Shown in pieces: positions 12,595 to 49,499 of a DNA stretch of 64,000 nt (position 1 is the stretch's first letter; each line of letters opens with the position of its first letter). The translations under genes and the position numbers were made by a program. The DNA comes from Chitinophagales bacterium (GTDB taxonomy: Bacteria; Bacteroidota; Bacteroidia; Chitinophagales; CAIODY01). The stretch spans positions 1,430 to 65,429 of the forward strand of contig CANFST010000014.1 in assembly GCA_947449695.1 (NCBI GenBank), written 5' to 3'. The notes beneath the pieces were generated by a model. That model was not told the origin of the DNA and did no database searches. It was given only the letters and a program-made list of their open reading frames with translations.

Positions 12595-12610
12595 ATGATT
12601 TTTATTTTGG

Positions 12611-12646
12611 TAAAAATACGTAAAAAATGAAAATTTGTTTTACGTA
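12611..12646 (-). terminator. Probable rho-independent terminator after guaA
   Basis: A 9-bp A+T-rich stem (TACGTAAAA / TTTTACGTA) followed on the minus strand by TTTTT. Confidence 0.45.
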
Positions 12647-12684
12647 AATTGATTTTGAGTTGAAAAGGAAATGGTAAAACCTTA

Positions 12685-16543: not shown

Positions 16544-16546
16544 GAA

Positions 16547-17896: not shown

Positions 17897-17932
17897 TGAT
17901 GATTAATTTTAGGAAAGTTATGTTTAAACGCC

Positions 17933-17940
17933 TAATTTTG
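17933..17940 (+). promoter_or_regulatory. Candidate -7 box (TAATTTTG) for the plus-strand acetyltransferase
   Basis: Exact TAnnTTTG. The TTG track start (17946) would sit at the predicted transcription start, which favours ATG 17994. Confidence 0.4.
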
Positions 17941-17993
17941 CTTTTTTGAGAATCATTTTTAACATTTTATTCAACTTTCCATTTAAGTTTTTC

Positions 17994-19585: not shown

Positions 19586-19586
19586 T

Positions 19587-21392
19587 TTAAGATTTGTTTT
19601 TTATCCAATTTATCATCACTAATAAATTCCAGATTACGGCAGAGTGATTATATTTTCCACTTTGATGTTCTTTTAGTTTTTGCTTCACCACATCAGAATT
19701 AATACCCTCAATTAAATTTAGATTTTCTTTGGTTAGGGTGTCATTTAAATACTCTTTAAGTTCTTTTCTAAACCAATTATCTAAAGGGACACCAAAACCT
19801 TTTTTAGGCCTGTCGAAAAGTTCTCTCGGAGCGTATTTATACAATAAATCCTTTAGTATTCTTTTCTTATTTCCTTTTTGATATCTGTATTCAATTGGCA
19901 AAGTACGTGCAAATTCAATTACTCTGTAATCTAAAAATGGACTACGAACCTCTAATGAAGCACTCATTGAAGCTCTGTCAACCTTTACATTGCTATCGTT
20001 AGCTAACCAAAAGTTTATGTTATAATCGGAGGCTTTTTGTAAGTAATGGTTATTATTAATCAAAATGTCTTTTTCAAATATTGGTACATTGTTTTTTGGT
20101 GTATAAAATTCAGATTTTAACCGATAAATGTTAGTTATAAAATCATCCAGGCTTTTTTGTTTTAGTTGATTTGCAATTTTCTGTAACCTATCATTTGGTA
20201 AAGAATTGAGCATAATGGCAAGTGGTTGCCTTAAGCCATAAGGAATATTAAAAACTGAGTGAGCTTTATAAATCCAATCGTAAAAATTATATCCAAGAAA
20301 ACCTTCGTCACCGCCATCACCGCTTAAAGCAACAGTTACTTTTGTTTTAGTAGCCATTGCCAAAAGAACAGATGGTATGGCGGAAGAATCTGCAAATGGC
20401 TCATCATAATATTTATTCAAGGATTCTATTACTGCTATGCCGTCAGTTATTTTACAGGGTATATTAGTATGATTAGTTTTTAAATAGCCTGCAGTATTTG
20501 TTGCATAAGGGCTTTCGTCATAATCTTCTAAATCGAACTTCACAGAGAATGTTTTTAGTTGTTCTGCTGAGTTTCTGGATGCTAATGCTGCAATTGTACT
20601 TGAATCAATGCCTCCAGATAGAAAACAACCCAAGGGTACATCAGCTAACATTCTCAATTTTATAGCATCGGTTAACAAATCTTCCAATTCCTCTAAAGCT
20701 TCACTATAAGATCCTTTGTATGTTTCAGAATTGTTGGGCAAATGATAGTATTTCTCTATAATAAATTCTCTATTATTTAAATTAAAAGAAAAACAACACC
20801 CAGCCCCAAGTTTACTGATTTCGTCATAAATACATAAAGGTTCTGGAATGTATCTGTAAGTAAAAAATGCTTCAACGGCTTGTTCTGAAATTTTAAATTG
20901 ATTTCCGATTGCAATTTGCGATGGTTGTGATGCACACTCTAATTCATTATTAACTAATGAGAAGTACAGAGGTTTTTTACCAAACCTATCACGTGCCCCA
21001 AAAATTGTCTTTGATGCCGAATCATAAATTACAAAGGCAAACATTCCATTTAGTTTGGATAAACATGCTTTGCCGTATTTGTGATAAAGAGCACATAAAA
21101 CTTCAGTATCAGAATTTGTTGTAAAGGAATATCCAAGCTTCGATAATTCTGATTTTAAGGTTTTGTAATTATAAATTTCACCATTAAATACAATATGTAA
21201 ATTAAGATAAGAAAATGGTTGGTTTGAACGTTCATCTAAATCAATAATTGCAAGCCTATTGTGCCCTAATATAACTTGATTATCAATTCGAATAAATTTA
21301 GAAAAATCCGGACCTCTGAAATTTATTTTTTCTAATTTAACTTTAACAAGATCTGCTGAATATAACTTTGTACTGAAATAAATTCCACACAT
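19587..21392 (-). CDS. Asparagine synthase (glutamine-hydrolysing)-like amidotransferase
   Basis: N-terminal MCGI (Ntn Cys2) and the PP-loop motif SGGIDSS. The gene lies inside the glycan locus. Confidence 0.88.
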   Translation of the reverse strand: MCGIYFSTKLYSADLVKVKLEKINFRGPDFSKFIRIDNQVILGHNRLAIIDLDERSNQPFSYLNLHIVFNGEIYNYKTLKSELSKLGYSFTTNSDTEVLCALYHKYGKACLSKLNGMFAFVIYDSASKTIFGARDRFGKKPLYFSLVNNELECASQPSQIAIGNQFKISEQAVEAFFTYRYIPEPLCIYDEISKLGAGCCFSFNLNNREFIIEKYYHLPNNSETYKGSYSEALEELEDLLTDAIKLRMLADVPLGCFLSGGIDSSTIAALASRNSAEQLKTFSVKFDLEDYDESPYATNTAGYLKTNHTNIPCKITDGIAVIESLNKYYDEPFADSSAIPSVLLAMATKTKVTVALSGDGGDEGFLGYNFYDWIYKAHSVFNIPYGLRQPLAIMLNSLPNDRLQKIANQLKQKSLDDFITNIYRLKSEFYTPKNNVPIFEKDILINNNHYLQKASDYNINFWLANDSNVKVDRASMSASLEVRSPFLDYRVIEFARTLPIEYRYQKGNKKRILKDLLYKYAPRELFDRPKKGFGVPLDNWFRKELKEYLNDTLTKENLNLIEGINSDVVKQKLKEHQSGKYNHSAVIWNLLVMINWIKNKS

Positions 21393-21409
21393 ATTTTTTT
21401 GTTTGTTAT

Positions 21410-21417
21410 CAAAAGTA
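21410..21417 (-). promoter_or_regulatory. Candidate -7 box (TACTTTTG on the minus strand) for the asnB-like gene
   Basis: Exact TAnnTTTG ending 17 nt upstream of the ATG at 21392. Confidence 0.4.
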
Positions 21418-21489
21418 TTGTTTTCCTATTTTCTGTGTATTATCTAACAAAATCATTTTAAAAAAATACAGCAAAATTTTGCACTAAAA

Positions 21490-22755
21490 TCAATTCATTT
21501 GTTTGGCCTCATTTTTAGTAAAAGTATTATACAATAAGGCTGTAATTAGTGCTGTGGAAAAAAGCAAAGCTACTCTTTTTTGAATTTCAATTTGAGTAAG
21601 TAAATCATTCCGGTGTGAATAAAAACAGAAATAAACAAAGGATACTATTAAAAATGATTTTAAAATTTTACCAGAATTATAGAGTAATAAATTTCCAATA
21701 AGTACAATTCCAAAAAAAATAAACACAAAAATAATTAAACCTGCCCAACCTTCTGATGCAAATACAAATGCCCAAATATTATTTCCTGCACCATAAGTGA
21801 GTTTGGGATAAACCAAGTTTTGATTAAAATAAACTAATTTTTGGTCTTGAAAATCAACTTTATTGAACAAAAACCCAAAACTCTTTACAATAGAACGTAA
21901 AGCAATAGGGTCGGTTTTTACTTTTTGGCGAATCACCTCATTTAAATTTGTTTGAATTATAAATGGTTCTGCTTGAGTGATAGCAGTTGTATAAACATTT
22001 ATGTTTGTTGCACTTTTAATAATAAAATCCATTCTAAAATTTCTGATTTGATTGGCAAATTGTTTGTAAAGGAAGAAGAAATAAATAGTTGCCAAAATCC
22101 CAAAATTGATAGCGATGTATTTTAATCGAAAAAAATAAATCAACAACTTTTGTTTTCCCATGCTATACATATAATATATAATAACTGTAATAGCCGAAAA
22201 AGCAGCAGCAGATCTGTGACCTACAAACAAATGAAGTAATAGCAATAAAATGCCGAAAGTAAAATGAATTTTTTTCTTATTGATATAAGATAAGATGATT
22301 ACAAAAATGCTTGACAATCCCCAAATCAACTCCCAATATGTTCCATTTTGTTTTTCTAATAATTCAGTTTTTGAAATACCAGCAAAAACATCTCGACCGA
22401 AAAGATAAAAAAAGGCAACACTACCTATTATACCAATAACAACAAACACTTTTTCTAAATTAGGAATTATAACTTCCTTGGAAGTATATTTTATAACGAT
22501 TTTTGAAAAAACAAAGTCAAAAATTAAAGTATAAAAAAGTATAGTAAAAAAAATAATGGCATAAATCAAGTAAGCTTCTGGCTGAATATCGTATAGGGGT
22601 GCGTAGGTTGTAGGTAAAGTATAATACCCAAAAAAAGCTGGTAAAAAGTAAACAACTGAACTAATAAAACTTAGAAGAAAAAAATCAACTTTTCTGTTTT
22701 TTATTAAAAAATAAAAAAGATTGACAAAAAAAGAAAATAAAAATAAATCTCTCAT
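21490..22755 (-). CDS. Polytopic membrane protein, probable Wzy-type O-antigen/EPS polymerase
   Basis: 421 aa, almost entirely hydrophobic segments with one larger loop. It sits directly downstream of the flippase. I cannot name a motif, so the call rests on context and topology. Confidence 0.5.
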   Translation of the reverse strand: MRDLFLFSFFVNLFYFLIKNRKVDFFLLSFISSVVYFLPAFFGYYTLPTTYAPLYDIQPEAYLIYAIIFFTILFYTLIFDFVFSKIVIKYTSKEVIIPNLEKVFVVIGIIGSVAFFYLFGRDVFAGISKTELLEKQNGTYWELIWGLSSIFVIILSYINKKKIHFTFGILLLLLHLFVGHRSAAAFSAITVIIYYMYSMGKQKLLIYFFRLKYIAINFGILATIYFFFLYKQFANQIRNFRMDFIIKSATNINVYTTAITQAEPFIIQTNLNEVIRQKVKTDPIALRSIVKSFGFLFNKVDFQDQKLVYFNQNLVYPKLTYGAGNNIWAFVFASEGWAGLIIFVFIFFGIVLIGNLLLYNSGKILKSFLIVSFVYFCFYSHRNDLLTQIEIQKRVALLFSTALITALLYNTFTKNEAKQMN

Positions 22756-24236
22756 TACTCTGCCTTTTTTATTCTGCTTCGAAGCACCTCAAGTGCCATG
22801 CTTGAAGTTTCTTTGATAGTTTTGATGCCAAACCAATTCCAATTGAAAAATAAAAATAAATAACTTGCACTAACGAATATAGAAAGTATGATTTGTTCAA
22901 TGTCTTGATGATCGCCTATATTAGTTAATAGATAAGAAAAAATAAAAAAAGTAATTTCGCTTAAGAAGAAAAACATAATTGGTGTATAAAAAATAGTCGC
23001 TATTTTTTTCCAAGATACTTTTAATTGATTTACGGCAATGATTAGCATTGCTATTAAATGGATAAAGCTAGAAAGCATTATAGCCATTGAAGCATAGTTG
23101 ATGCCTTTGTGAGCCGCTAACCAGGTGAATACTACTATTGAAATAAGATACACAGCTTTTGCATAAATATTATTTGTTAAACTGCCTGTTGACCTTGAAA
23201 GGGTATCAATGAATCGTGGAATTACATTAAATAAAAAAGTTATAGACAAAACAACGAATAATAATGCATAACCATTCCATTTATTGCCTAACAGAATATG
23301 CATTATAAAAGTAGAATTATTTATCAATAAAAAAATACCAACCGTTAAAAAAAATAACATTACCTCTAAAAAATGTAAAAATATTTTTTGAGTAGCAACT
23401 GTATCTTTTTGTGTTTTTGCCAAAGATGAAAACAATACACTATCGAAAGCGCTGCCTAACATTTTTAAAACATTATCAAACAGATATTGTATTCTTTCAA
23501 ATATTCCAACAGAATAAAGTCCGCAGATTTTACCTATAATTATCTTATCAATTTTTACTGAAATAATACTTAATGTATTTACCAAAGTTAATCTGCCACC
23601 GTAGTGAAAAATCTCTTTCAGATATTTTTTTTCAGTTAAAATTCCATAGTGAAATTTTGCCGAATAACTCATCATCAAAAATGCAACAATACCACAAATT
23701 AATTGGGTAATAATTAATGCTAATAAACCATATCCTAGATAAACCAAACCTATAGAAAAAAATAAATTAATGAATACAATGATATTATCAATAATTGCTA
23801 TTTTTTTAAATCCAAATTGTCTTATTAATAACGAACGAGGAATCATTGAGTAAGTGCGAAAAACAAAAATTAACATTAGGTAGATTTTGAATTTTTCAAA
23901 ATCTATATCAATAAATCCATTGATTTGCTGATGTAATAAAAGAATAAGCAAAACAATTATCAGGCAAACGATTGAGCTGATTAATGTAGTGGCATTTATT
24001 TTTTTCTGATTGATTTCGATGGAGTGAATTAAAGAAGAACCAAAGCCGAATTCAGCAAGAGAACATAAAAAACCAACCATTACCATAGCAATAGCATATT
24101 GCCCTAATATGTAAGGAGAAACATGACGAGATAAAAAGTAAAACAAAATAAATCCCGAAAAAACGCTAATGAAAATGGAAAATATTTGCCAAAAAATACC
24201 GGTAAAAAAGTGATGTTTTATTGTTGCTTTTTCCAT
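22755..24236 (-). CDS. wzx: Wzx-type polysaccharide flippase (MOP superfamily)
   Basis: 493 aa with 12 or more hydrophobic segments and the usual organisation of polysaccharide-biosynthesis/MOP proteins. Its stop shares one nucleotide with the next ATG (TAATG). Confidence 0.7.
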   Translation of the reverse strand: MEKATIKHHFFTGIFWQIFSIFISVFSGFILFYFLSRHVSPYILGQYAIAMVMVGFLCSLAEFGFGSSLIHSIEINQKKINATTLISSIVCLIIVLLILLLHQQINGFIDIDFEKFKIYLMLIFVFRTYSMIPRSLLIRQFGFKKIAIIDNIIVFINLFFSIGLVYLGYGLLALIITQLICGIVAFLMMSYSAKFHYGILTEKKYLKEIFHYGGRLTLVNTLSIISVKIDKIIIGKICGLYSVGIFERIQYLFDNVLKMLGSAFDSVLFSSLAKTQKDTVATQKIFLHFLEVMLFFLTVGIFLLINNSTFIMHILLGNKWNGYALLFVVLSITFLFNVIPRFIDTLSRSTGSLTNNIYAKAVYLISIVVFTWLAAHKGINYASMAIMLSSFIHLIAMLIIAVNQLKVSWKKIATIFYTPIMFFFLSEITFFIFSYLLTNIGDHQDIEQIILSIFVSASYLFLFFNWNWFGIKTIKETSSMALEVLRSRIKKAE

Positions 24237-24269
24237 TTATAAACAAATAAATTTAGCTTTAAATTACTA

Positions 24270-25367
24270 TCAAGATGATAAATGTAATTCAGTATTTATT
24301 TTTACTATAATTAAATAACCAACAAATAGTAAAAATGAGAAAAACAATGTTAAGAAAATCATCAACACAGGTTTTAACTGCATAGGTTCTAATGGTAAAT
24401 GTGGTTTATCAATTAATTGAAAAATTGGAGTTTCGCTTTCAATTTCAAATTTTACTTTATCTAAATTTTGTGCAGTTTCATTATACATTATTCCTAATAT
24501 AGATAGCTCACGTTTTAAAACATTTTGGTCAAAGGTGCCGGCTTGTCTGATATTAAGTTTTGTAGCGTCAATATTTTTATTAAAAAGTATTTCTTTATCG
24601 AAAAGAACCTGACGTAATGAATCGAATCTGTTTTGAACTAGTTGGTATAAAACTTTATTCTTCTCAATTTTTTTGTTGATATAAAAATTGCTAGCATGAC
24701 TAACTAATTGTTCGCACAAAATCTTGCTCGATAGTTGGTTGGTTGTGGTTATTGCACATTCAATTATTTCGGATTTATTTATTTTTATGTTCAAAAATTT
24801 TTCTCTTATAGTTGAACAAAGCCAGTTTATTACTCTTATTTCTTTGGCGTCCATATTGTCTAGATTGTCATTTTTGAAACGAAAATCGACATCGGTTTTT
24901 AAATATTTTTTAATTCGTTTTTGTAAATGAAGGCTATCAATAAGTTCATTAGCGATTAACTGATTGTTTGATGTTTTTGATAGTAAAGAAGCAGAAATAA
25001 TAGATTGAGATTGTATTAAATCCTGAACTTTATCGCCCGTAATTTCCGACTCGGGCATTCCGATTCCAATTTGCGAAGCAAAATTTAATATGGAATTTAA
25101 TCCTTGTCCCCCTGTTTCATTTATCATGAAAGTAATTGTAGCATCATATTTGGGTTGGTTAAAGAAAAAGCAATAACCTAAGCCAATTCCGCTACAAACA
25201 ATTAGAATAAAAAAAAATACCTTTATTCTTTTTTTTGCATCCCAATAAATTGCTTTAAAAGATTTTAGCAATTGTTTTAGTGTGTATTCTTGTTCTTCCA
25301 ATGGTAGTGGTGTATTTAATTTTAAGCAGAAAATGAAATTGCAAATCAAATTTTCTAAAGATTGCAA
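24270..25367 (-). CDS. Wzz-like chain-length determinant protein (5' end uncertain)
   Basis: One N-terminal TM (FFFILIVCSGIGLGYCFF), a long soluble middle and a C-terminal TM (VLMIFLTLFFSFLLFVGYLIIV). There is no in-frame ATG near the 5' end. The TTG at 25367 lies inside a -7 box, so TTG at 25301 is an alternative start. Confidence 0.55.
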   Translation of the reverse strand: MQSLENLICNFIFCLKLNTPLPLEEQEYTLKQLLKSFKAIYWDAKKRIKVFFFILIVCSGIGLGYCFFFNQPKYDATITFMINETGGQGLNSILNFASQIGIGMPESEITGDKVQDLIQSQSIISASLLSKTSNNQLIANELIDSLHLQKRIKKYLKTDVDFRFKNDNLDNMDAKEIRVINWLCSTIREKFLNIKINKSEIIECAITTTNQLSSKILCEQLVSHASNFYINKKIEKNKVLYQLVQNRFDSLRQVLFDKEILFNKNIDATKLNIRQAGTFDQNVLKRELSILGIMYNETAQNLDKVKFEIESETPIFQLIDKPHLPLEPMQLKPVLMIFLTLFFSFLLFVGYLIIVKINTELHLSS

Positions 25368-33798: not shown

Positions 33799-33912
33799 TT
33801 CTTATCCAGAAAGACAGAGGGAATTGACCCGATGAAGTCTTGACAACCTACTTTGATTTATCAAAGAAAGGTGCCAAATTCAACTCAGCAGCAATGTTGA
33901 GGTAGATAAGTT
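33799..33912 (+). promoter_or_regulatory. SAM-I (S-box) riboswitch aptamer
   Basis: TTCTTATCCAGAAAGACAGAGGGAATTGACCCGATGAAGTC..GACAACC..GGTGCCAAATTC..GAGGTAGATAAG. P1 is CTTATC/GATAAG. The GAGGGA, CCCGATGA (kink-turn), CAACC and GGTGCCAAATTC blocks match the S-box consensus. Confidence 0.88.
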
Positions 33913-34062: not shown

Positions 34063-35253
34063 ATGCAAGAGCAAACAAAAATTATTCATTCCATTCCAGT
34101 TGACGAATTAACAGGAGCCATCGCAGTTCCGATTTATCAAACCTCCACATTTGTACAAGAAAGTCCGGGCGTTAACAAAGGGTTCGATTATGCCCGAAGT
34201 AACAATCCTACCAGAAAAGCATTGGAAGATATTGTTGCAAAATTAGAAAACGGAAGCGGCGGATATGCCTTCGCCAGTGGTTTAGCGGCGATTGATGCTG
34301 TTGTGAAATTATTAGAAAGCGGCGACGAAATTTTAGCAGTAGATGATATTTACGGTGGTGCATTTCGCTTGTTCACACACATTTATCAAAAGTTTGGCAT
34401 CAGCATAAAATACGTTGATACGACTGATGCAGCGAATGTTGCCGAAGCAATTTCACCAAAAACAAAGTTGATTTGGTTAGAAAGTCCGACCAATCCAACG
34501 TTGAAAATTTCTGACATTGAAGCGATTGCAAAAATTGCAAAAGCCAACAACTGCTTGCTCTGCATTGACAACACTTTCGCTTCGCCAGCTTCGCAGAAAC
34601 CAATTGACTTGGGAGCTGATTTAGTCATTCATTCTGCAACAAAATATTTGGGCGGACACAGTGATTTAATTGCTGGTGTGGTGATTACAAAAACTGTTGA
34701 ATTAGGTGAAAAAATAAAATTCATTCAAAACGCAACAGGAAGTATCCTAGCACCATTTGATAGTTTTTTGGTGATTCGTGGTATTGAAACTCTAGCACTT
34801 CGAGTGAAACAACATTCAGAAAATGCACAACGAGTTGCAGAGTTTTTGCAAAGCTGTGATTTCATCAACAACGTTTATTATCCAGGTTTATCAACGCATC
34901 ACAATCATCACATTGCGAAGCAACAACAAAAGTATTTTGGTGGCGTAATTGCTTTCGATTTGAAAATTGATGAAAAAGAAATTGCAAAACAAATTGTGAG
35001 TAATACAAAATTATTCAAGCTGGCTGAAAGTTTGGGCGGTGTAAAAAGTTTGATTTGTTTGCCTTGCGAAATGACACACAAATCAATTCCTGCAGAAAAA
35101 CGCCACCAGAGTGGTGTTACTGATAGTTTAATCAGATTGTCAGTTGGATTAGAAGATGCAGATGATTTGATTGAAGATTTAAAACAGACTTTTGAATTAG
35201 CATTTAGTAATCATGAACAAAAATATTTTATTGACCTTTTAAAAAATTTATAA
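34063..35253 (+). CDS. PLP-dependent Cys/Met-metabolism enzyme (cystathionine gamma-synthase/beta-lyase family)
   Basis: 396 aa. HSATKYLGGHSD contains the PLP-binding Lys. The N-terminus IHSIPVDELTGAIAVPIYQTSTF is typical of the family. Confidence 0.85.
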   Translation: MQEQTKIIHSIPVDELTGAIAVPIYQTSTFVQESPGVNKGFDYARSNNPTRKALEDIVAKLENGSGGYAFASGLAAIDAVVKLLESGDEILAVDDIYGGAFRLFTHIYQKFGISIKYVDTTDAANVAEAISPKTKLIWLESPTNPTLKISDIEAIAKIAKANNCLLCIDNTFASPASQKPIDLGADLVIHSATKYLGGHSDLIAGVVITKTVELGEKIKFIQNATGSILAPFDSFLVIRGIETLALRVKQHSENAQRVAEFLQSCDFINNVYYPGLSTHHNHHIAKQQQKYFGGVIAFDLKIDEKEIAKQIVSNTKLFKLAESLGGVKSLICLPCEMTHKSIPAEKRHQSGVTDSLIRLSVGLEDADDLIEDLKQTFELAFSNHEQKYFIDLLKNL

Positions 35254-35255: not shown

Positions 35256-36434
35256 ATGACAAAGAAAAATTTAACAATCGGTCTATTCGGCTTTGGGTGT
35301 GTTGGCTATGGCTTGCACGAAGTGTTGCAACGAACACCAACTTTAAAAACATCCATCAAAAAAATTTGTGTGAAAGACAAAAATAAAGCACGACAAATTT
35401 CAGCAGAGCATTTCACTTTCGACAAAAATGAAATTCTGAATGATGAAGAAATAAATGTAGTTGTAGAGTTAATTGATGATGCTAATGCAGCATTTGAGAT
35501 AGTTTCAGCCGCTTTGAAAAAAGGAAAAGCAGTTGTAACTGCCAATAAAAAAATGATTGCCGAACATTTTAATGAGTTATTGGAATTGCAAAAGATTTAT
35601 CAAGTGCCTTTATTGTACGAAGCTGCATGTTGCGCCAGCATTCCGATTATCAGAAATCTGGAAGAATATTATGACAATGATTTATTGGAATCTATCGAAG
35701 GAATTGTGAACGGTTCAACGAATTATATTCTTACAAAAACTTCCACTGATAAAATTTCTTACGCCGATGCATTGCTCGATGCACAACAAAAAGGTTATGC
35801 CGAAAGCAATCCAACGCTTGATACTGGCGGATTTGACGCTAAATATAAATTGCTGATTCTGATTGCACATGCTTTTGGTTTAGTTTTGCAGCCTGATGAA
35901 ATTTATAATCAAGGCATTGATAAATTGGGCGAATTAGAATTGAATTATGCTCGTGAAAAAGGTTTTAAAATAAAGCTGATTGCGCATGCGCATAAAACCA
36001 ACGATGGAAAAATTGAATCGTATGTGTTGCCAAAATTTATTTCAACTGATGATAAATTATTTTCGGTGGATGATGTTTTTAATGGCGTAAAAACCAAATC
36101 GTGTTTCAGTGATTCGCAATTTTTTGCAGGTAAGGGCGCAGGCGCACATCCAACGGCATCAGCGGTTTTGAGCGATATTTCTGCATTGAGTTATGATTAC
36201 AAATACGAGTACAAAAAATTAAATCAATCGGCTGTCGAATTGAAAAATGATTTTTCTGTGAAAGTTTTTTTGCGACACAAAAAAGAAGAACAACAATTTT
36301 TGCAAAGCAAATTTAGCAGCATTGATGAATCATTTTTAAATCATAATTCGGGTTATATCATTGGCAATATTACTTTGGAAAATTTAAAACAACTTTCTGA
36401 AACACCTGATTTATCAATTGTTCTGGCGAATTAA
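35256..36434 (+). CDS. hom: Homoserine dehydrogenase
   Basis: N-terminal Rossmann motif IGLFGFGCVG, then NGSTNYIL and AESNPTLDTGGFDAKYKLLILIAHAFG. Starts 2 nt after the upstream stop. Confidence 0.85.
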   Translation: MTKKNLTIGLFGFGCVGYGLHEVLQRTPTLKTSIKKICVKDKNKARQISAEHFTFDKNEILNDEEINVVVELIDDANAAFEIVSAALKKGKAVVTANKKMIAEHFNELLELQKIYQVPLLYEAACCASIPIIRNLEEYYDNDLLESIEGIVNGSTNYILTKTSTDKISYADALLDAQQKGYAESNPTLDTGGFDAKYKLLILIAHAFGLVLQPDEIYNQGIDKLGELELNYAREKGFKIKLIAHAHKTNDGKIESYVLPKFISTDDKLFSVDDVFNGVKTKSCFSDSQFFAGKGAGAHPTASAVLSDISALSYDYKYEYKKLNQSAVELKNDFSVKVFLRHKKEEQQFLQSKFSSIDESFLNHNSGYIIGNITLENLKQLSETPDLSIVLAN

Positions 36435-36477
36435 AAATTATTTAACCAATCAAAATGAAAATAAAAACATCGGCATA

Positions 36478-36485
36478 TATCTTTG
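36478..36485 (+). promoter_or_regulatory. Candidate -7 box (TATCTTTG) in the hom/lysC-operon spacer
   Basis: Exact TAnnTTTG, the same 8-mer as the riboswitch promoter, ending 8 nt before a small-ORF ATG. Confidence 0.4.
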
Positions 36486-36493
36486 CAACCGAA

Positions 36494-36565
36494 ATGAAAA
36501 AACAACTTTCTATTTTATCAAAGCACACTTGCAACTGTAAACGTTGTAAGCATGCTATTGTGTAA
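36494..36565 (+). CDS. Candidate 23-aa leader peptide (MKKQLSILSKHTCNCKRCKHAIV)
   Basis: My own translation. The ORF lies between the candidate promoter and a strong hairpin with a T-run. An in-frame upstream ATG at 36455 would give 36 aa. There is no independent support. Confidence 0.3.
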   Translation: MKKQLSILSKHTCNCKRCKHAIV

Positions 36566-36598
36566 AACAGGAAAGTGTAAAAAATATTTTTCAATACG

Positions 36599-36633
36599 AA
36601 AAGGCTTTCCGACTATGTTGGAGAGCCTTTTTT
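36599..36633 (+). terminator. Intrinsic terminator / candidate attenuator upstream of the thioesterase-lysC operon
   Basis: AAGGCTTTCC-N9-GGAGAGCCTT stem (8 bp plus A-U extension) followed by TTTTTT. It ends 17 nt before ATG 36651. Confidence 0.75.
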
Positions 36634-36650
36634 ATTTTAAACAAAACAAC

Positions 36651-37064
36651 ATGAAATTAATTAGTAAGAAAATTTGTATGACTCGTGATATTGGAATCCA
36701 CGGCAATTTATTTGGTGGAATTTTAATGGCTTGGATTGATGAAGCTGCCGCTGCATTTGCAACTGAATATTGCTACACACCCAATATGGTAACAGTAAAA
36801 GTGGGTGAACTGCTTTTCAAAAAGCCTGTAAAATCTGGCAATCACATTCGTATTTACGGTGAAGTGGCGCATTTGGGAAATACTTCTATCACATTGAATA
36901 TTGAAGTAAAAAAATACAGTTTGTATAGCGCAGAAGAAACATCGGTTTGCAGTACAAATATTACATTTGTGCGTATTGATGATGATGGAAGCCCAACACC
37001 AATTGGTGAAACTGTTCGAAAAAATCATACAAATAATTTACAGCAACCTTTGGCAATTCTATAA
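36651..37064 (+). CDS. Hotdog-fold acyl-CoA thioesterase (YciA-like)
   Basis: HGNLFGGILMAWIDEAAA motif. I start at ATG 36651 because the track start (36552) would run through the terminator hairpin. Confidence 0.75.
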   Translation: MKLISKKICMTRDIGIHGNLFGGILMAWIDEAAAAFATEYCYTPNMVTVKVGELLFKKPVKSGNHIRIYGEVAHLGNTSITLNIEVKKYSLYSAEETSVCSTNITFVRIDDDGSPTPIGETVRKNHTNNLQQPLAIL

Positions 37065-37082
37065 ACAACAACATCCAAAAAA

Positions 37083-38399
37083 ATGAAATTGAAAGTTTTA
37101 AAATTTGGTGGAACATCGGTGGGGAGTGCATTACGGATGCACAAGTTGGTTGAACTCATTAATAATGATGAGCCAAAAATTGTGGTGCTTTCTGCGATGT
37201 CAGGCACAACGAATGCTTTGGTTGAAATTTCCAACGCTTATCACAAAAAAGATTTTTCAAGAGCGAATGATTTGATTACAACTTTTGAAAACAATTATAA
37301 AAATGTCATCAAAGAATTATTTGGAACAGAAATTTCATTGAGCAAAGCAGAAAAGTTTTTACAAGAAAAATTTGACCTATTAAATTCATTTTCAAAAAAA
37401 GAATTTTCAACTGGTGATGAATGCTGCATTTTGGCACAAGGCGAATTAATTTCCACTGCGCTGTTTCATTATTATTTAGAAGAAACAAAAATTGAATCAG
37501 TGTTGTTACCTGCTTTAGAATTCATGCGAATTGATGCGAATGAAGAACCCGACATGAAGCAAATTGAAAAATTGATTGCGGAAGAATTGAAAAAATATCC
37601 TTCGCAAAAATTATTTATCACACAAGGTTATATCTGCAAAAATGCAAAAGATGAAATTGATAATTTAAAACGGGGCGGAAGCGATTACACAGCCACAATT
37701 ATAGGCGCAGCAATTGATTCAAGCGAAATTCAAATTTGGACTGACATTGATGGAATGCATAACAATGACCCACGAGTGGTGAAAAACACTCATCCCATTG
37801 CTCAACTTTCATTTAATGAAGCGGCTGAGTTGGCTTATTTCGGTGCAAAAATTTTACACCCAACTTGCATTTTGCCTGCGAAGGATAAAAAAATTCCAGT
37901 TCGATTATTGAACACGATGCAACCCGAAGCGGCCGGAACATTGATTACAGAAGCATCTCAAGGTGATAACATAAAAGCTGTTGCGGCAAAAGATGGAATC
38001 ACCGCAATCAAAATCAAATCAGGGAGAATGTTGTTGGCGTATGGTTTTTTGAGTACGGTATTTGAAATTTTCGAACGCAACAAAACTTCGATTGACATGA
38101 TTACAACATCAGAAGTTGCGGTTTCTTTAACGATTGACAACACAAAAAATTTAGAAAAAATTTTAGTGGAATTAAAAGAATTCGGAACAGTTGAAGTGGA
38201 TGAAAATCAAACCATCATCTGCATTGTAGGCGACTTTGAAGCCGATAAACAAGGCTATGCGGTGAAGGTTTTTGATTCGTTGAAAAACATTCCAATCCGT
38301 ATGATTTCGTATGGCGGAAGTGAAAATAATATTTCTATTTTAGTAAATTCTGAATTCAAAAATCAAGCATTGGTTGCTTTAAATGAAGGATTATTTTGA
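37083..38399 (+). CDS. lysC: Aspartate kinase
   Basis: VLKFGGTSVG N-terminus, SAMSGTTNALV, and a C-terminal ACT-like repeat region (IICIVGDF...). Confidence 0.93.
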   Translation: MKLKVLKFGGTSVGSALRMHKLVELINNDEPKIVVLSAMSGTTNALVEISNAYHKKDFSRANDLITTFENNYKNVIKELFGTEISLSKAEKFLQEKFDLLNSFSKKEFSTGDECCILAQGELISTALFHYYLEETKIESVLLPALEFMRIDANEEPDMKQIEKLIAEELKKYPSQKLFITQGYICKNAKDEIDNLKRGGSDYTATIIGAAIDSSEIQIWTDIDGMHNNDPRVVKNTHPIAQLSFNEAAELAYFGAKILHPTCILPAKDKKIPVRLLNTMQPEAAGTLITEASQGDNIKAVAAKDGITAIKIKSGRMLLAYGFLSTVFEIFERNKTSIDMITTSEVAVSLTIDNTKNLEKILVELKEFGTVEVDENQTIICIVGDFEADKQGYAVKVFDSLKNIPIRMISYGGSENNISILVNSEFKNQALVALNEGLF

Positions 38400-39577
38400 G
38401 TAAAATATATTCACATATTACAAAAGTTTTTGAAAAATTGAACATCGAATGTTCGACTGAAAAAAGCGACGAACAAAATATTGCAGTTCAACTTTTTTCA
38501 TACAATAATCCTGATGGAACAATTCGTTGGATTTTTCCTGCAAGTTCCAAAAGCCCATTAATGTTGAAGTTTTATGGAGTGATTGGTTGGAAATCAAAAT
38601 TATTTTCAACGGCAATAAAAATTTTGTTTGCCGTTCGATTTAAAAAATTAATTGCAAAAAGCTGCGAAGAAATTTTTTTTTCGGAAACAGAATTTGAAAA
38701 ATACATAACTCAATTAGGTACTGAATGGGCTTTATTTACTGGCACTCCAGGTAAATTGCGAAAGGCGTTGATTTATGTTTCGAAATCAACAGAAAAATAT
38801 TTTTTGAAAATTCCTTTGACGGAAGCGGCAAAAGAAATTGTAAATCACGAAGCAAAATTCTTAAAACAACTCAACCAATTTAATTTTCACTACACAAAAA
38901 TTCCGAAAGAAAAATTCACAGAAAATTATTTGCAGCAATCTGATTTGAGCGTTGAATGTAACAACAGAAGCGATGTTTGGATTTCAACTCATCAACAATC
39001 ATTGGAAGAAATATTTTCGTTTACGAAAAAGAAAAAGAAAATTTCGGAAACAGATTTTTGGAAAAAAGTGGAACGGAATTTTTCGGAATTAAAAAATCAC
39101 AAATCACATTCCTCAATTTCTGATTGGAATTTGATTCTTGAAAAATTGCTTTTGCTCAAAAATAAAATTGATGCAGAGCAACAAATTTCTTCATCCATAG
39201 CCCACACAGATTTAACACCGTGGAATTGTTTTTGCGATAATAAAAAATTATACATTTACGATTGGGAGCTGGCAGTGCTTGATGCACCTGCATTGTACGA
39301 CTTCTTTCATTTTCATTTACAAGGAAACTGTTTGTTGGGCAATCAACCTTATGAAATGATAAATCAAAAATTGCAAACCACAATTCAGCAAAAATCAATT
39401 CAACATTTCGTTGCTGATAATTCGATTAACATGGCTTTGCATTTGAAATTATATTTGTTGTATCATGTGAGTACATCCTTGTGTTGGTATGCGGTGCAAC
39501 CCAATTTGCATTTGCAAGTGCATTGGTTGATGAAACTCTGGAATGATTATTTAGACGAAATTTTACATAGCAATTGA
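38396..39577 (+). CDS. ePK-like/APH-type phosphotransferase of unknown substrate
   Basis: YFLKIP (beta3 Lys), HTDLTPWN (HxDxxxxN catalytic loop) and IYDWE (metal-binding Asp). The TTG start overlaps the lysC TGA (TTGA). About 100 aa at the N-terminus are unassigned. Confidence 0.65.
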   Translation: MSKIYSHITKVFEKLNIECSTEKSDEQNIAVQLFSYNNPDGTIRWIFPASSKSPLMLKFYGVIGWKSKLFSTAIKILFAVRFKKLIAKSCEEIFFSETEFEKYITQLGTEWALFTGTPGKLRKALIYVSKSTEKYFLKIPLTEAAKEIVNHEAKFLKQLNQFNFHYTKIPKEKFTENYLQQSDLSVECNNRSDVWISTHQQSLEEIFSFTKKKKKISETDFWKKVERNFSELKNHKSHSSISDWNLILEKLLLLKNKIDAEQQISSSIAHTDLTPWNCFCDNKKLYIYDWELAVLDAPALYDFFHFHLQGNCLLGNQPYEMINQKLQTTIQQKSIQHFVADNSINMALHLKLYLLYHVSTSLCWYAVQPNLHLQVHWLMKLWNDYLDEILHSN

Positions 39578-40872
39578 GAAAAGAATTTTTAAATACCGTT
39601 CAAAATGTTTTAGCCAACTACACTTATGCTGTGGTAAAGCCATCGGCTGCAAACCTTGATGAATGGAGCGAATTCAGCGATATTGACATAGTAATTGATG
39701 AACCTTCGGCGATAAAAATTTGGGAGCAATTAGAGAAAAATGAATCGGTAAAAAAAGTGAGAGCGGCTGATAAATCATTCATGTTTCAGCTCTATTTCAT
39801 TTTGAAAGATGATTCGATTGTTGCTATTGATTTTATTTTTCAGCACAAACATTTGCGTAAGCATTTAATGACTTTAGAAGAAATGCTACATCATAGAAAG
39901 CAGACTGAAAGAGGTTTGTGGGTGATGGATGAAATGGTAGAGTTTGAATTTATCTGGTTATTTTATATGCTAAACAAAAGCGAATTGCCAGAAAAGTATA
40001 TTCAACAATTTAATGCCTTCAATGATGATTTGAAATACAATATCATTCAACAATTGAAAGCTAAATATGAAACTGTTGTAGTGAAATTTGAAGAGTTATT
40101 TGCATTGCAAAATTTCAGAAAAATTGTTCTGAAAAACATTTTTAAAAAGCCTAAAAACAGAGGATTGAAAAGACTTTCAAACCGAATTGATTATTATTTG
40201 GATTTAGGAAATGAATTCTTTTTAGCCGATGGTTTGATGATTACTTTTTCGGGCGTTGATGGCGCTGGAAAGTCAACAGTGATTGAAAATTTAAAACACA
40301 AAATCGACAAACAATTAAGAAGAAGAGTGGTAGTGATTCGTCATCGTCCATCTGTGCTGCCGATTATTAATGCCTGGTTTGTAGGTAAAAAAAAGGCGGA
40401 AGAGTTAACTGTTCAAAAATTACCTCGACAAGGGGAAAACAAAAACACCATTTCTTCTTTCATTCGTTTCGTTTACTATTTTATAGATTATTTCTTTGGA
40501 CAGTTTTGGGTTGAATTGATTTATGTCAGCCGGGGTTACATTGTGTTGTACGACCGTTATTATTTTGATTTTATCAACGACAGCAAACGCAGTAATATTC
40601 AGCTATCCAAAGGTTTTACAAAATGGTTTTACAAATTTTTGATTAAACCCGATTTGAATTATTTCTTAACAGCTCCTGCAGATGAAATTTTAAAACGCAA
40701 GCAAGAATTATCTGCTGAAACGATTAATGAATTGACAAGCGAATACAAAATTTTGTTTGGTGAATTGCAATCAAAAACATCTAAAGTAAAATATGAAATC
40801 GTGAATAACATTGTGTTAGAAGAAACAATTGAAAATATTTTCCAAGAAGTAAAACATAAAACGTTGGATTAG
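39574..40872 (+). CDS. Fusion protein: nucleotidyltransferase-like N-domain plus thymidylate-kinase-like P-loop C-domain
   Basis: N-terminal SDIDIVI ... VAIDFIF resembles the acidic triad of Pol-beta-type NTases. The C-terminal part has FSGVDGAGKST (Walker A) and YDRYYFD (a TMPK-like DR motif). The TTG start overlaps the upstream TGA (TTGA). Confidence 0.55.
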   Translation: MRKEFLNTVQNVLANYTYAVVKPSAANLDEWSEFSDIDIVIDEPSAIKIWEQLEKNESVKKVRAADKSFMFQLYFILKDDSIVAIDFIFQHKHLRKHLMTLEEMLHHRKQTERGLWVMDEMVEFEFIWLFYMLNKSELPEKYIQQFNAFNDDLKYNIIQQLKAKYETVVVKFEELFALQNFRKIVLKNIFKKPKNRGLKRLSNRIDYYLDLGNEFFLADGLMITFSGVDGAGKSTVIENLKHKIDKQLRRRVVVIRHRPSVLPIINAWFVGKKKAEELTVQKLPRQGENKNTISSFIRFVYYFIDYFFGQFWVELIYVSRGYIVLYDRYYFDFINDSKRSNIQLSKGFTKWFYKFLIKPDLNYFLTAPADEILKRKQELSAETINELTSEYKILFGELQSKTSKVKYEIVNNIVLEETIENIFQEVKHKTLD

Positions 40873-40878
40873 CCACGA

Positions 40879-41568
40879 ATGAAATCAATCATCGAAAAAA
40901 TATTACGGCTCCGAAATCCAAACTTTTCCTTTCATGAAAAAGTAGATGGAAGAATGTTGACGAATTTGCTATATTCCTTATTTATTGGGCATTTGCGGAG
41001 CTATAAATTTTTATTGAAAGGTTCAATGCCATCGCAATCAGCAATTGGAAAAAGATGCAAAACACAATATCAACACAAAATAAAATGGGGAAAAAAATTA
41101 AAACTGGGCAATGATGTATTGTTGAGTGCATTAGGAACTGAAGGAATTATTTTAGGCGATAACATTGGCATTGGTTCTTATAGTTGTATAGTTGTTTCAA
41201 CCACTTTCAACAATTTGGGTTCGTTTATAAAAATTGGGAACAACGTGGGAATGGGCGAATTTACTTACTTGGGCGGAGCAGGTGGTTTGGAAATCGGCGA
41301 TGATTGCATCATTGGTGAATATTTAAGTTGTCATCCTGAAAATCATAATTATGCGGATTTAGAAACGCCAATTCGATTGCAAGGTGTGAACAGAAAAGGA
41401 ATCAAAATTGGAAAAAACTGTTGGATTGGAAGTAAAGTAACAATTTTGGATGGTGTCGAAATCGGCAATGGGTGCATATTAGCGGCTGGTACTGTGGTTA
41501 CAAAAAGTTTCCCACCGAATTCTATCATTGGTGGTGTGCCAGCAAAATTGATAAAAGAAAGAAAATAA
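40879..41568 (+). CDS. Hexapeptide-repeat (LbH) acyltransferase
   Basis: IGDNIGIGSYS, IGNNVGMGEF, IGDDCIIGEY, IGKNCWIGSKVTILDGVEIGNGCILAAGTVV and C-terminal GGVPAKLI. Confidence 0.85.
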   Translation: MKSIIEKILRLRNPNFSFHEKVDGRMLTNLLYSLFIGHLRSYKFLLKGSMPSQSAIGKRCKTQYQHKIKWGKKLKLGNDVLLSALGTEGIILGDNIGIGSYSCIVVSTTFNNLGSFIKIGNNVGMGEFTYLGGAGGLEIGDDCIIGEYLSCHPENHNYADLETPIRLQGVNRKGIKIGKNCWIGSKVTILDGVEIGNGCILAAGTVVTKSFPPNSIIGGVPAKLIKERK

Positions 41569-41574
41569 ATTCCT

Positions 41575-42804
41575 TTGAAAACCATCCTCATCGCTGCTTA
41601 TGCCATCAATCCTTATCAAGGCTCGGAAGACGCCATGGGATGGAATTTTGTGATGCAAGCCGCACGTTTTCAAAATGTGATTGCTGTTACTCGAAAAAAT
41701 AATCGAGCCGATATTGAAAAATTTATCGCTGAAAATCCTTCACTTAAAAGCCAAACTGACCGCATTCGATTTTTGTATTACGATTGGAATAAAGCTTTGC
41801 TGTATTGGAAGAAAGGACCGATTTTAAGTTTGATTTATTTTTATTTCTGGTCATTTTGTGTTGCCCTTTTTTTGAAAAGGGAAAAATTAAATTTTGATAT
41901 TGCCCATCACTTAAATTTTCATAACGACTGGACACCAACTTTTTTGTGGCTGCTCGGAAAGCCTTTTGTATGGGGACCTGTAGGGCATCATCCCAAAATC
42001 AAAAATATTTTTTTAAGTGAGTATGATTTTTCAGCAAAAGCACTAGATAGATTTTTATGGATACTGAAAAATATTTTTTGGAAGTTAGACCCGTTCTTAA
42101 AAATTGCTCGAAACAAAGCTGCTTGCATTTGGTATATGCATCATGGTTCGGTTGAAAAATTAAAACCGAAAAATAATTTTTTTATCTCACCATCTATCGC
42201 TGCGGAAGAAGTTGATTTCAAATGCAAACAATCAGATGACTTTGTAATCCTCTCCATTGGAAGGTTTGTGGCTTTGAAAGGATTTGATGTTACTATAAAA
42301 TCATTTGCAAAATTCTATCACAATCTTTCATCTGAAGAAAAATTAAAAACAAAATTGGTGATTGTGGGCACTGGAAAATACAAATTAAAAGTGCGGCAAT
42401 GGATTGCAGAAAATAATATTGAAAATGCCGTAGAAGTGCATGAATGGATGCCTCGAGAGCAGTTGAAAAATATTTACAAGCAAGCGGCTTTGTTCTTTTT
42501 TCCTTCACACGAAGGTGCAGGCATGGTGGTAGCAGAAGCGATGAGTGCTGATATGCCTGTGTTGTGTTGGAATAATTTCGGGCCTGGCGAAATCACACAT
42601 CCTGATTCAAAATTGAAAGTTGATTATCCAGAAAATTATCAAACAGGAATTGATGCTTTCGCAGAAAAATTGCATCAAATTTTTTCTGACAAAAATTTTT
42701 ATCAAGCCGAACAAATACTTGCACATCAACGCTTTCAAAGTTTATTGAAATGGAATGTGAGAGGTGAGCAGTTGAAGGAGATGTATGAGAGTGTTAATAA
42801 ATGA
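41575..42804 (+). CDS. GT4-family glycosyltransferase
   Basis: FPSHEGAGMVVAEAMSADMPVL (E-x7-E). The TTG start lies 6 nt after the upstream stop. The nearest in-frame ATG would remove the conserved N-terminus. Confidence 0.8.
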   Translation: MKTILIAAYAINPYQGSEDAMGWNFVMQAARFQNVIAVTRKNNRADIEKFIAENPSLKSQTDRIRFLYYDWNKALLYWKKGPILSLIYFYFWSFCVALFLKREKLNFDIAHHLNFHNDWTPTFLWLLGKPFVWGPVGHHPKIKNIFLSEYDFSAKALDRFLWILKNIFWKLDPFLKIARNKAACIWYMHHGSVEKLKPKNNFFISPSIAAEEVDFKCKQSDDFVILSIGRFVALKGFDVTIKSFAKFYHNLSSEEKLKTKLVIVGTGKYKLKVRQWIAENNIENAVEVHEWMPREQLKNIYKQAALFFFPSHEGAGMVVAEAMSADMPVLCWNNFGPGEITHPDSKLKVDYPENYQTGIDAFAEKLHQIFSDKNFYQAEQILAHQRFQSLLKWNVRGEQLKEMYESVNK

Positions 42805-42954
42805 TTTCAATTTTTAGTGCCAAAATTCCACTTCATGTAACGTACTGTATTTCTGCATTAACACATTGTTTGCATTTGTCAGCCAATTTAAAATAAACCT
42901 TTGGCGTTAAAACTGCGTCTATGTTATAATTAGTTTAAAAACCAAAAATCATTT

Positions 42955-43176
42955 ATGAAAAAGAAATTTTTATTACTCGTTATTTTAATTGGGTTTGTGG
43001 CTATAGGTTCAGTTAATGCTCAAAATCAAAAGCCAGCACAAGCACCGCAAAGTCAAGTAGACAAAAGAGATCAAAAGGATATGGATAAAACATTTAAAGA
43101 TCGCAAAAAAGGAGGTCATCATAAACACCATAAAAGTCATCACGGACATCAGGGTGGGAATCAAGCACCTCACTAA
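42955..43176 (+). CDS. Small secreted histidine-rich protein
   Basis: 73 aa with signal peptide MKKKFLLLVILIGFVAIGSVNAQ. The C-terminal segment GGHHKHHKSHHGHQGG has 8 His in 16 residues. Confidence 0.5.
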   Translation: MKKKFLLLVILIGFVAIGSVNAQNQKPAQAPQSQVDKRDQKDMDKTFKDRKKGGHHKHHKSHHGHQGGNQAPH

Positions 43177-49408: not shown

Positions 49409-49499
49409 CGGAGAGAGAGAGATTCGAACTCTCGGTACAAGTTTAAGCTCGTACAACGGTTTAGCAAACCGGCCCTTTCGGCCACTCAGGCATCTCTCC
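49409..49499 (-). tRNA. tRNA-Ser (anticodon GCU)
   Basis: Hand-folded 91 nt sequence GGAGAGA..TCTCTCC with a 7-bp acceptor stem. The anticodon loop is TTGCTAA, the variable arm has a 7-bp stem (type II tRNA), the T-arm is GAGAG-TTCGAAT-CTCTC and the discriminator is G. CCA is not encoded. Confidence 0.9.

Follow-up and report, generated by a model that had tools for sequence, protein, structure and literature searches.

Closest described systems

In HldE, in the FKP protein of Bacteroides and in AmgK-MurU, a kinase and a nucleotidyltransferase (NTase), fused or adjacent, together supply the synthesis of a surface glycan with a nucleotide-activated sugar; the anomeric kinase AmgK belongs to the APH family. 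The present analysis concerns a set of six plus-strand genes located at positions 36651-42804 of a 64,000-nucleotide (nt) stretch of DNA from a Chitinophagales bacterium (assembly GCA_947449695.1, contig CANFST010000014.1), this whole stretch being called the window hereafter. In this set, a thioesterase gene (gene 1) and the aspartate kinase gene lysC (gene 2) are followed by a cassette of four genes, which encode an APH-like kinase (gene 3), a protein with an NTase-like and a thymidylate kinase (TMPK)-like domain (gene 4), a hexapeptide acetyltransferase (gene 5) and a GT4-family glycosyltransferase (gene 6). The comparison of loci reported below established that genes 3 to 6 form the central and downstream part of a Wzx/Wzy polysaccharide locus conserved across Bacteroidota. 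Comparisons of gene order indicate that the adjacency to lysC is very likely a species-level accident, not a metabolic link to aspartate.

In kind, the locus is an ordinary Wzx/Wzy exopolysaccharide pathway. The nearest characterised system in overall make-up is the eps locus of Myxococcus xanthus (PMC7484181), the likeness being at the level of families only. As far as the consulted part of that account goes, both loci contain an outer-membrane exporter, a polysaccharide co-polymerase (PCP), a flippase, a Wzy polymerase, several GT4 genes and a hexapeptide-type acetyltransferase, and both have a sigma-54 (NtrC-type) activator and a histidine kinase nearby. Within the same part of the account, they differ in the initiating transferase, which is a WecA-like PNPT in Bacteroidota and a PHPT in M. 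xanthus, and no APH-like or TMPK-like gene was found there for the eps locus. Among the NCBIfam models, the best match of gene 6 is EpsH (55 bits for a cut-off of 800), and gene 5 matches EpsC with 43 bits for a cut-off of 150.

With the LicA-LicC-LicD system, the likeness lies in the enzymes. LicA is the closest solved structure to the gene 3 model, and the succession of kinase, nucleotide activation and glycan transfer fits the fusion of a kinase with a putative NTase-fold domain. LicC is a GT-A-type cytidylyltransferase; in contrast, gene 4 matched neither PF00483 nor PF12804, the GT-A-fold NTP_transferase families, no LicD match was obtained, and the Lic system contains nothing equivalent to the TMPK-like domain. 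Similarly, no sequence similarity of genes 3 and 4 to HldE, FKP or AmgK-MurU was detected here. To our knowledge, none of these three carries a third domain resembling a nucleoside monophosphate (NMP) kinase, and their nucleotidyltransferase folds differ from the one proposed for gene 4.

A polysaccharide locus conserved across Bacteroidota

One genome per species was scanned, which gave 80 cassette loci, and the partner genes were counted by tblastn. As many contigs end within the locus, all counts are lower bounds. The 80 loci came from Chitinophagales, Flavobacterium, Chryseobacterium, Spirosoma, Hymenobacter, Saprospiraceae, Lewinella, Crocinitomix, Balneolaceae and others. Their genes follow a fixed order: a response regulator receiver, Wza, Wzc, Wzx, a GT4, Wzy_C, the APH-like and NTase-like/TMPK-like part, an acetyltransferase, two further GT4 genes, a DUF1972 glycosyltransferase (DUF1972-GT) and a WecA-like gene. 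The downstream GT4 gene was counted in at least 76 loci, the APH-like gene in 69, the acetyltransferase gene directly 3' of the kinase gene in 68 and GT4c in 63; the corresponding figures were 61 for DUF1972-GT, 53 for Wzy_C, 47 for Wzx, 45 for Wzc and 43 for Wza. De novo clustering of the open reading frames (ORFs) added the WecA-like PNPT, a member of the GlcNAc-1-P transferase family, in 49 loci, a stand-alone receiver in 39, a hybrid histidine kinase in 27 and a sigma-54 response regulator in 24, and brought out no further conserved enzyme in the 80 loci. The neighbourhoods inspected individually (L003, L004, L008 and the P0122 contig) agree with this picture, the cassette being embedded among flippase, polymerase, exporter and glycosyltransferase genes. 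A 12-gene polysaccharide locus of nearly fixed order is so defined, which is found in Chitinophagales, Flavobacteriales, Cytophagales, Saprospiraceae and other groups; sigma-54 and two-component regulators are usually encoded with it.

Neither lysC nor the thioesterase gene was found in the 80 cassette loci (0/80 for each). In the reverse test, 80 lysC loci from other Bacteroidota (58-72% identity) were collected, and no cassette gene was found 3' of lysC in the 66 of them that have at least 1.2 kb of downstream sequence (0/66). Together with the confinement of the junction to one species-level population, described below, these results largely refute the idea, put forward in the preliminary description of the set, that the aspartate kinase is meaningfully coupled to the module, since genes 3 to 6 occur without lysC inside ordinary exopolysaccharide loci and lysC occurs without them. 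The former outcome is the one that the description itself had named as contrary to its proposal, and the survey of neighbourhoods across Bacteroidota that it had suggested has thus supplied it. One of its two functional readings, a surface-glycan module with kinase-plus-nucleotidyltransferase logic, is sustained in this generic form by the 80 Wzx/Wzy loci, by the LicA fold of gene 3 and by the fusion of genes 3 and 4 in other species; its further suggestion of an aspartate-derived substituent is abandoned here, as nothing points to such chemistry.

The Wzy_C polymerases are 56-73% identical among the listed relatives of different genera, outside the cluster of the query itself. Since this degree of conservation is unusual for Wzy_C, the sequences suggest that the locus makes a common polymer and not a serotype-variable one.

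Several variants of the locus were noted. In seven of the 80 loci a methyltransferase gene is inserted 3' of the kinase gene. A Methyltransf_24 gene lies between the kinase and acetyltransferase genes in one clade (L008, L031-L033 and L076; about +1.3 kb from the start of the TMPK-like part) and further downstream in three other loci. Nine species without the acetyltransferase (L071, at 11299-13671, and eight other loci) have their two downstream GT4 genes fused into one of about 790 aa with two Glycos_transf_1 domains. A typical Bacteroidota locus was also present on a 406-kb contig (L061, JBLIMR010000001.1) of a metagenome-assembled genome labelled Gammaproteobacteria, which reflects either mis-binning or horizontal transfer.

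The junction between lysC and gene 3

Re-reading of the ORFs confirmed the six plus-strand genes as first described, with their junctions of +18, -4, -4, +6 and +6 nt, the two overlaps, each of which is TTGA, and the hairpin in front of the set. Overlaps of 4 nt and tight packing on one strand are normal operon architecture and no statistical anomaly. At 38393-38402 (+), the TGA of lysC (37083-38399) overlaps the TTG start of gene 3 (38396-39577); homologues of gene 3 have an ATG at this place and Wzy_C before it.

The window has its match in a 322-kb scaffold that belongs to a series of environmental metagenomes. The lysC-gene 3 junction was found only in contigs that are 97.6-100% identical to the window. 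In a relative with 83% identity for gene 3, the order is intact, from Wza to Wzy_C and then APH-like, TMPK-like, acetyltransferase and GT4 genes. A sister species shares 92.6% nucleotide identity with the window over trmD-ribF-metB-hom-thioesterase-lysC; there, the gene 3' of lysC is rluX, which encodes a pseudouridine synthase and is convergent with lysC, the stop codons of the two genes overlapping, Wzy_C is joined to the APH-like gene, and the TMPK-like and acetyltransferase genes stand on the other side of the trmD-lysC block. Six contigs of the same metagenome series as the window (L094-L099) carry receiver, Wza, Wzc, Wzx, GT4 and Wzy_C and then, directly, a convergent rluX that is 88% identical to the copy of the sister species.

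The two arrangements form a reciprocal pair, lysC|APH with Wzy_C|rluX versus lysC|rluX with Wzy_C|APH. For this reason, the junction between lysC and gene 3 would be explained most simply as the product of a chromosomal rearrangement consisting of one inversion with its breakpoints at gene ends. The event would have cut the polysaccharide locus exactly between Wzy_C and the kinase gene and placed its downstream part directly after the 3' end of lysC, and the upstream half-locus was probably left abutting rluX in the species of the window. The homology of gene 3 to the Wzy_C-linked copy of the sister species (L009) begins at about codon 3, and the ancestral ATG of gene 3 has become a TTG that overlaps the stop codon of lysC. 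Wzy_C and rluX differ in their last codons between the two arrangements; the C-terminus of lysC is identical to that of its counterpart in the sister species, and the ratio of non-synonymous to synonymous substitution rates (dN/dS) of lysC is 0.07. With breakpoints exactly at gene boundaries, the junction would represent a clean natural example of a one-step operon fusion with translational overlap. The pairing of an amino-acid kinase with a modification module, as a probable accident of rearrangement, is not to be read as a new pathway.

A functional coupling to lysC was weighed at this point. In such a case, selection would have kept the translationally coupled operon either for an aspartyl-phosphate or other aspartate-pathway intermediate, or for a control responding to lysine or threonine. 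The 4-nt TTGA overlap, the lack of a consensus promoter between lysC and gene 3, the purifying selection on the cassette in this very arrangement and the presence of lysC upstream in all listed neighbourhoods of the 23 contigs with the exact gene 3 protein would all suit this explanation. It is nevertheless made very improbable by the two surveys given above, by the absence of the junction from both the sister species and the 83%-identical relative, by the position of Wzy_C as canonical upstream partner of gene 3 everywhere else and by the start codon of gene 3, an ATG that was degraded to TTG at the breakpoint.

The sister species shows a second cut in the locus, exactly between the APH-like and TMPK-like genes (L009, 3561-4691; L001, 10001-12043). 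Its APH-like copy has a frameshift near the 3' end, a terminator follows this copy, and its TMPK-like and acetyltransferase genes adjoin trmD. A foreign origin of the cassette of the window was also considered and set aside, no GC anomaly being found.

State of the cassette in the window

The four reading frames of the cassette are intact. In the comparison with a population variant (L010), dN/dS amounted to 0.27 (gene 3) and 0.03 (gene 4); in that with the sister species, it amounted to 0.16 (gene 4) and 0.10 (gene 5). Because these ratios lie between 0.03 and 0.27 and the catalytic residues are invariant, the cassette is under purifying selection and appears to be still functional. Over 36918-40098 of the window, L010 has an identical lysC and 13 differences in gene 3; the initial 525 nt of gene 4 show 59 differences, of which 47 are synonymous, and half of the synonymous sites of this segment differ. 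This mosaic divergence indicates an allelic recombination between divergent cassette alleles, a process that is common in surface-glycan genes.

None of the canonical partner genes of the locus (Wza, Wzc, Wzx and Wzy_C) was found by tblastn in the window. It could be asked on this basis if the split cassette is a stranded and decaying remnant that makes no contribution to a polysaccharide, all the more so as the locus of the sister species is more fragmented and its gene 3 copy frameshifted, and as GT4c and DUF1972-GT are absent after the GT4 gene both here and in the 83%-identical relative. The four intact frames, the low dN/dS values, including the 47 synonymous changes out of 59 in the initial segment of gene 4, the retained catalytic residues and the persistence of a Wza to Wzy_C half-locus in the same metagenome series speak against decay, which is regarded as improbable.

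A second, unrelated glycan locus lies at 14274-25367, on the minus strand except for one plus-strand gene. It encodes a Wzz-like protein, a Wzx flippase, a 421-aa protein without Pfam match, an asparagine-synthase-like protein, three GT4 enzymes, a hexapeptide transferase and a pectate-lyase-like protein. This locus was rejected as the missing partner of the cassette, as it shows no homology to the canonical partner genes.

The enzyme encoded by genes 3 and 4

Hidden Markov model (HMM) searches upheld the initial family calls of all six genes, with a marginal APH match for gene 3 and, for gene 4, a match of the thymidylate-kinase-like part, and every motif quoted in their support was present in the translations. 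Of the families proposed at that stage for checking, APH, Thymidylate_kin, Hexapep and Glycos_transf_1 were matched, and the Kdo/WaaP kinase family PF06293 and the NTP_transf_2 family PF01909 were not.

Gene 3 starts at the annotated start of its homologues and encodes a kinase of the APH/choline-kinase fold, i.e. of the eukaryotic protein kinase-like (ePK-like) type, with a conserved N-terminal extension of about 105 aa. Its score against Pfam APH (PF01636) was 24.1 bits for a gathering threshold of 23.2, and 15 of 19 homologues match this family. K138, E152, H270-x-D272-x4-N277, D289-W290-E291 and a G-rich loop are invariant across the homologues, so that the catalytic HxDxxxxN, the metal-binding D of the D-[FW]-E motif, the beta-3 Lys, the alpha-C Glu and the bilobal fold of an ePK-like kinase are all found. 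The predicted model (pLDDT 92.6) gave as best Foldseek matches the pneumococcal choline kinase LicA (4r7b, E-value 3.6e-7), APH(2''), ChoK/EtnK, macrolide phosphotransferases and methylthioribose (MTR) kinase, with a probability of 1.00 for LicA, APH(2'') and ChoK. According to the model, each of the closest solved folds thus belongs to a small-molecule kinase; chains of WaaP or WbdD were absent from the best 50 structural matches. Correspondingly, PF06293, the WaaP/Kdo-type family, was not matched at E <= 1 by the 19 homologues, no NCBIfam family, resistance models included, was matched by gene 3, and a sequence search of gene 3 against the PDB returned nothing.

Gene 4 (39574-40872) begins with a TTG that overlaps the stop codon of gene 3. 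Its C-terminal domain (40210-40872) has the fold of thymidylate kinase, a P-loop kinase. Thymidylate_kin (PF02223) was matched with 34 bits over the P-loop region only, about 30 residues, and TIGR00041 with 28 bits, below its 83-bit cut-off. The invariant positions comprise the P-loop GVDGAGKST with a Tmk-type Asp, DRYYFD and the LID residues R375 and K376. Foldseek matches to thymidylate kinases had target-normalised TM-scores of 0.7-0.76, and the sequence search against the PDB returned thymidylate kinases only, with alignments to 2plr and 3hjn. Fold, P-loop Asp, DRY and LID arginine are therefore shared with Tmk. The gene 4 domain differs from Tmk in its sub-cut-off scores, in a conserved insertion of about 60 residues (RHRPS...LPRQG) that takes the place of the segment binding thymidine monophosphate (dTMP), and in being always fused to the NTase-like domain and encoded in polysaccharide loci. 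The insertion includes a family-specific region of low pLDDT at residues 260-290, where Tmk binds dTMP, and an aromatic, hydrophobic helix is located at residues 292-316.

The N-terminal domain of gene 4 (39574-40209, 212 residues) is a probable NTase-fold domain of the NTP_transf_5-like type followed by a helical linker. Invariant residues are D36-x-D38, D79, D86, K22 and Y18; D36, D38 and D86 lie at or in the predicted strands 37-41 and 82-88, which provides the DxD and third acidic residue of an NTase. The hG[GS] motif that would precede the DxD is lacking, no G[GS] being conserved at this place, and Y18 and K22 are invariant instead. PF14907 (NTP_transf_5) was weakly matched by four of 19 gene 4 homologues (best E-value 1.8e-5), and one homologue matched Polbeta at 0.11; the domain of the window itself matched no profile of Pol-beta-type NTases. 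An hhalign comparison with a single PF14907 protein aligned the DxD motifs at a non-significant probability of 4.8%, and a profile of the domain found nothing in the PDB apart from a spurious match at 0.038. Structure searches yielded no NTase match for gene 4, the Foldseek lists being swamped by TMPK and the BFVD search giving only TMPK and deoxynucleoside kinase (dNK). An NTase fold is plausible on these data. In 1.84 billion proteins, the domain has 276 representative relatives, almost all of the same architecture.

Hundreds of full-length homologues of gene 4 exist in Bacteroidota. In 58 of the 80 species, genes 3 and 4 form a single reading frame of 770-920 aa; eight such fused ORFs were checked and are exact matches to database proteins of 769-818 aa, with RefSeq among the sources. 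The two-gene form of the window, with its TTGA overlap, appears from this comparison to be a minority, split version of an enzyme that is usually fused. The fused protein bears the names hypothetical protein, nucleoside/nucleotide kinase family protein, thymidylate kinase or phosphotransferase in its sources, and no description of the gene 3/4 enzyme or of the locus was found in the open-access literature. The three-domain enzyme thus seems to be a widespread and apparently uncharacterised orphan, for which the initial remark that the combination is not a described system remains fair. It stands at the centre of the locus and is present in cultured Chryseobacterium, Flavobacterium, Spirosoma and Hymenobacter, which makes it directly testable; carriers include Chryseobacterium gambrini DSM 18014 and a Flavobacterium (proteins WP_076390505.1 and WP_014084736.1).

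Genes 5 and 6

Gene 5 (40879-41568) encodes a hexapeptide enzyme with a left-handed beta-helix, putatively a sugar O-acetyltransferase of the WbbJ/WcaF type. Pfam Hexapep was matched with 51 bits; the best equivalog, WbbJ (NF007240), scored 90 bits, below its 243-bit cut-off, and membership of the Hexapep family holds. Gene 6 (41575-42804, TTG start) encodes a GT4-family glycosyltransferase, with a Glycos_transf_1 match of 95 bits and the EX7E-type motif EGAGMVVAE of this family.

The second functional reading of the preliminary description was that a stacked phosphotransferase, nucleotidyltransferase, acetyltransferase and glycosyltransferase inactivate antibiotics or other xenobiotics. Some matches do lie in that direction: gene 3 has the APH fold, with structural matches to APH(2'') and macrolide phosphotransferases, and gene 5 weakly matches the Vat and CatB models. 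All scores against resistance families are far below the cut-offs, however, as in the case of Vat (57 bits for a cut-off of 300), and gene 3, which matches no NCBIfam model, has a choline kinase and no resistance enzyme as its top structural match. For gene 4, PADLOC gave short P-loop matches only. As the polysaccharide-export context of Wza, Wzc, Wzx and Wzy_C is in addition invariant, this reading has been discarded and retains next to no credibility.

Transcription and leader region

Gene 1 (36651-37064), read from the ATG that gene callers choose in relatives, encodes a 137-aa YciA-like acyl-CoA thioesterase of the hotdog fold (Pfam 4HBT, 59 bits). It is followed after 18 nt by lysC, a junction that is kept in the sister species (L001), where the thioesterase gene is a conserved partner of lysC. 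The lysC product is a housekeeping, monofunctional aspartate kinase, with a TIGR00657 score of 297 bits for a cut-off of 209 and matches to AA_kinase and ACT; it has the amino-acid-kinase domain and two ACT domains expected of such an enzyme, ACT_9 having two matched stretches.

The spacer between hom and the thioesterase gene (36435-36650, +) folds at -52.2 kcal/mol (z = -5.8) and is about 98% identical to that of the sister species (L001), versus 92.6% in the flanks. A candidate Bacteroidota-type -7 promoter box (TATCTTTG), supported at the level of the motif only, is located at 36478-36485 (+); it is the sole TAnnTTTG between the two genes, it is conserved in the sister species, and the same octamer is found at 33771, 5' of a SAM riboswitch. 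It is followed by a structured leader at 36495-36640 (+), which consists of a long imperfect hairpin and then a 16-bp terminator-like hairpin with a U-run at 36598-36632. As the latter lies downstream of the -7 box and 18 nt before the ATG of gene 1, it is either part of a 5' leader or the end of the metB-hom operon. The spacer could be an undescribed leader of the thioesterase-lysC unit. Neither a lysine riboswitch nor any other Rfam family was matched in it, constrained folding disclosed no antiterminator, and the leader had no match when metagenome contigs were scanned for its exact pattern. A possible short ORF (MKKQLSILSKHTCNCKRCKHAIV) is also present in the spacer; attenuation by a leader peptide (possibly of 23-36 aa) was rejected, as Lys and Thr codons are insufficiently enriched.

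On the plus strand, no TAnnTTTG box was found from the start of lysC to that of gene 3, and a scan for sigma-70 promoters remained at chance level (40 sites for 43.8 expected). As no consensus promoter belongs to the cassette itself, its transcripts probably originate in the thioesterase-lysC unit by read-through, and this mode of expression would be a by-product of the rearrangement.

Proposed role of the gene 3/4 enzyme

Folds, motifs and context lead us to propose, tentatively and with less than even confidence, that genes 3 and 4 jointly activate a small hydroxyl compound, i.e. a sugar or an amino-alcohol, to a nucleotide-linked donor. In this proposal, the LicA/APH-like domain would make a phosphomonoester, which the NTase-fold domain would couple to a nucleotide. 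The TMPK-like domain, whose motifs are characteristic of kinases acting on a phosphate and not on a hydroxyl group, would recycle the released NMP or extend the phosphate. The product would be installed on the lipid-linked repeat unit by the neighbouring GT4 or by another transferase, and the hexapeptide enzyme would O-acetylate. In a broader and more doubtful version, the APH-like/NTase-like/TMPK-like protein may be a new three-step enzyme, serving either the synthesis of a nucleotide- or pyrophosphate-linked donor or the phospho-decoration of a phylum-wide polysaccharide, and the inversion may have moved this decoration, in the species of the window, from sigma-54/two-component control to that of the aspartate kinase leader.

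The main alternative is that genes 3 and 4 act directly on the undecaprenyl-linked sugar of the repeat unit by phosphorylating, pyrophosphorylating or nucleotidylating it, in the manner of WaaP, WaaY and WbdD. Like gene 3, WbdD and WaaP are ePK-like kinases encoded in glycan loci, and the methyltransferase 3' of the kinase gene in 7/80 loci recalls the kinase-plus-methyltransferase pairing of WbdD. The location of genes 3 and 4 amid glycosyltransferase and polymerase genes, the lack of a conserved transferase for a phospho-substituent in the locus and the hydrophobic helix of the TMPK-like domain would equally fit a lipid-linked glycan substrate. What makes the alternative rather unlikely is that the nearest folds of gene 3 are small-molecule kinases, with neither WaaP nor WbdD in the best 50 and no PF06293 match, and that the TMPK-like domain has kept three features typical of NMP kinases (P-loop Asp, DRY and LID Arg). 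WbdD, moreover, works in ABC-transporter pathways and not in Wzy pathways.

Several observations count against the overall account given here, namely a conserved polysaccharide locus whose putative donor-synthesizing enzyme was displaced by a probable inversion. Firstly, some loci lack the APH part (L003, L045 and L047) or the NTase-like part (L007), and the evidence for an NTase fold in the N-terminal part of gene 4 is weak. In addition, ORF clustering showed no conserved GT-A nucleotidylyltransferase or LicD-like transferase in the 80 loci, so that the proposed donor-synthesis route is incomplete. As to the inversion, the probable assignment of contigs L094-L099 to the species of the window was made by elimination and from nucleotide divergence levels of 88-93%, and not through a physical link; the further rearrangements in the sister species also imply that one inversion cannot explain everything. 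Finally, a strong terminator-like hairpin stands 18 nt before gene 1, no antiterminator having been found by folding, and it is still conceivable that control of the cassette together with lysC brings some adaptive advantage.

Other features of the window

Downstream of gene 6, a gap of 150 nt, in which a weak 5-bp terminator-like site is located (42903-42919), is followed by a 73-aa ORF (42955-43176, +). The predicted product has a signal-peptide-like N-terminus and a tail rich in histidine and lysine, and gene callers predict the same ORF in identical contigs.

Upstream of the set, a SAM-I riboswitch (RF00162, 74.5 bits) was detected at 33799-33912 (+), with a TATCTTTG -7 box at 33771 and a terminator-like stem after it. 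It precedes a gene of the cystathionine-gamma-synthase family (34063-35253) and the homoserine dehydrogenase gene (35256-36434). A tRNA gene with a long variable arm was found at 49409-49499 (-) with 53 bits. The sole other member of the Tmk/dNK fold in the window is a deoxynucleoside kinase gene at 11244-11930 (-; dNK, 195 bits), which is unrelated to gene 4.

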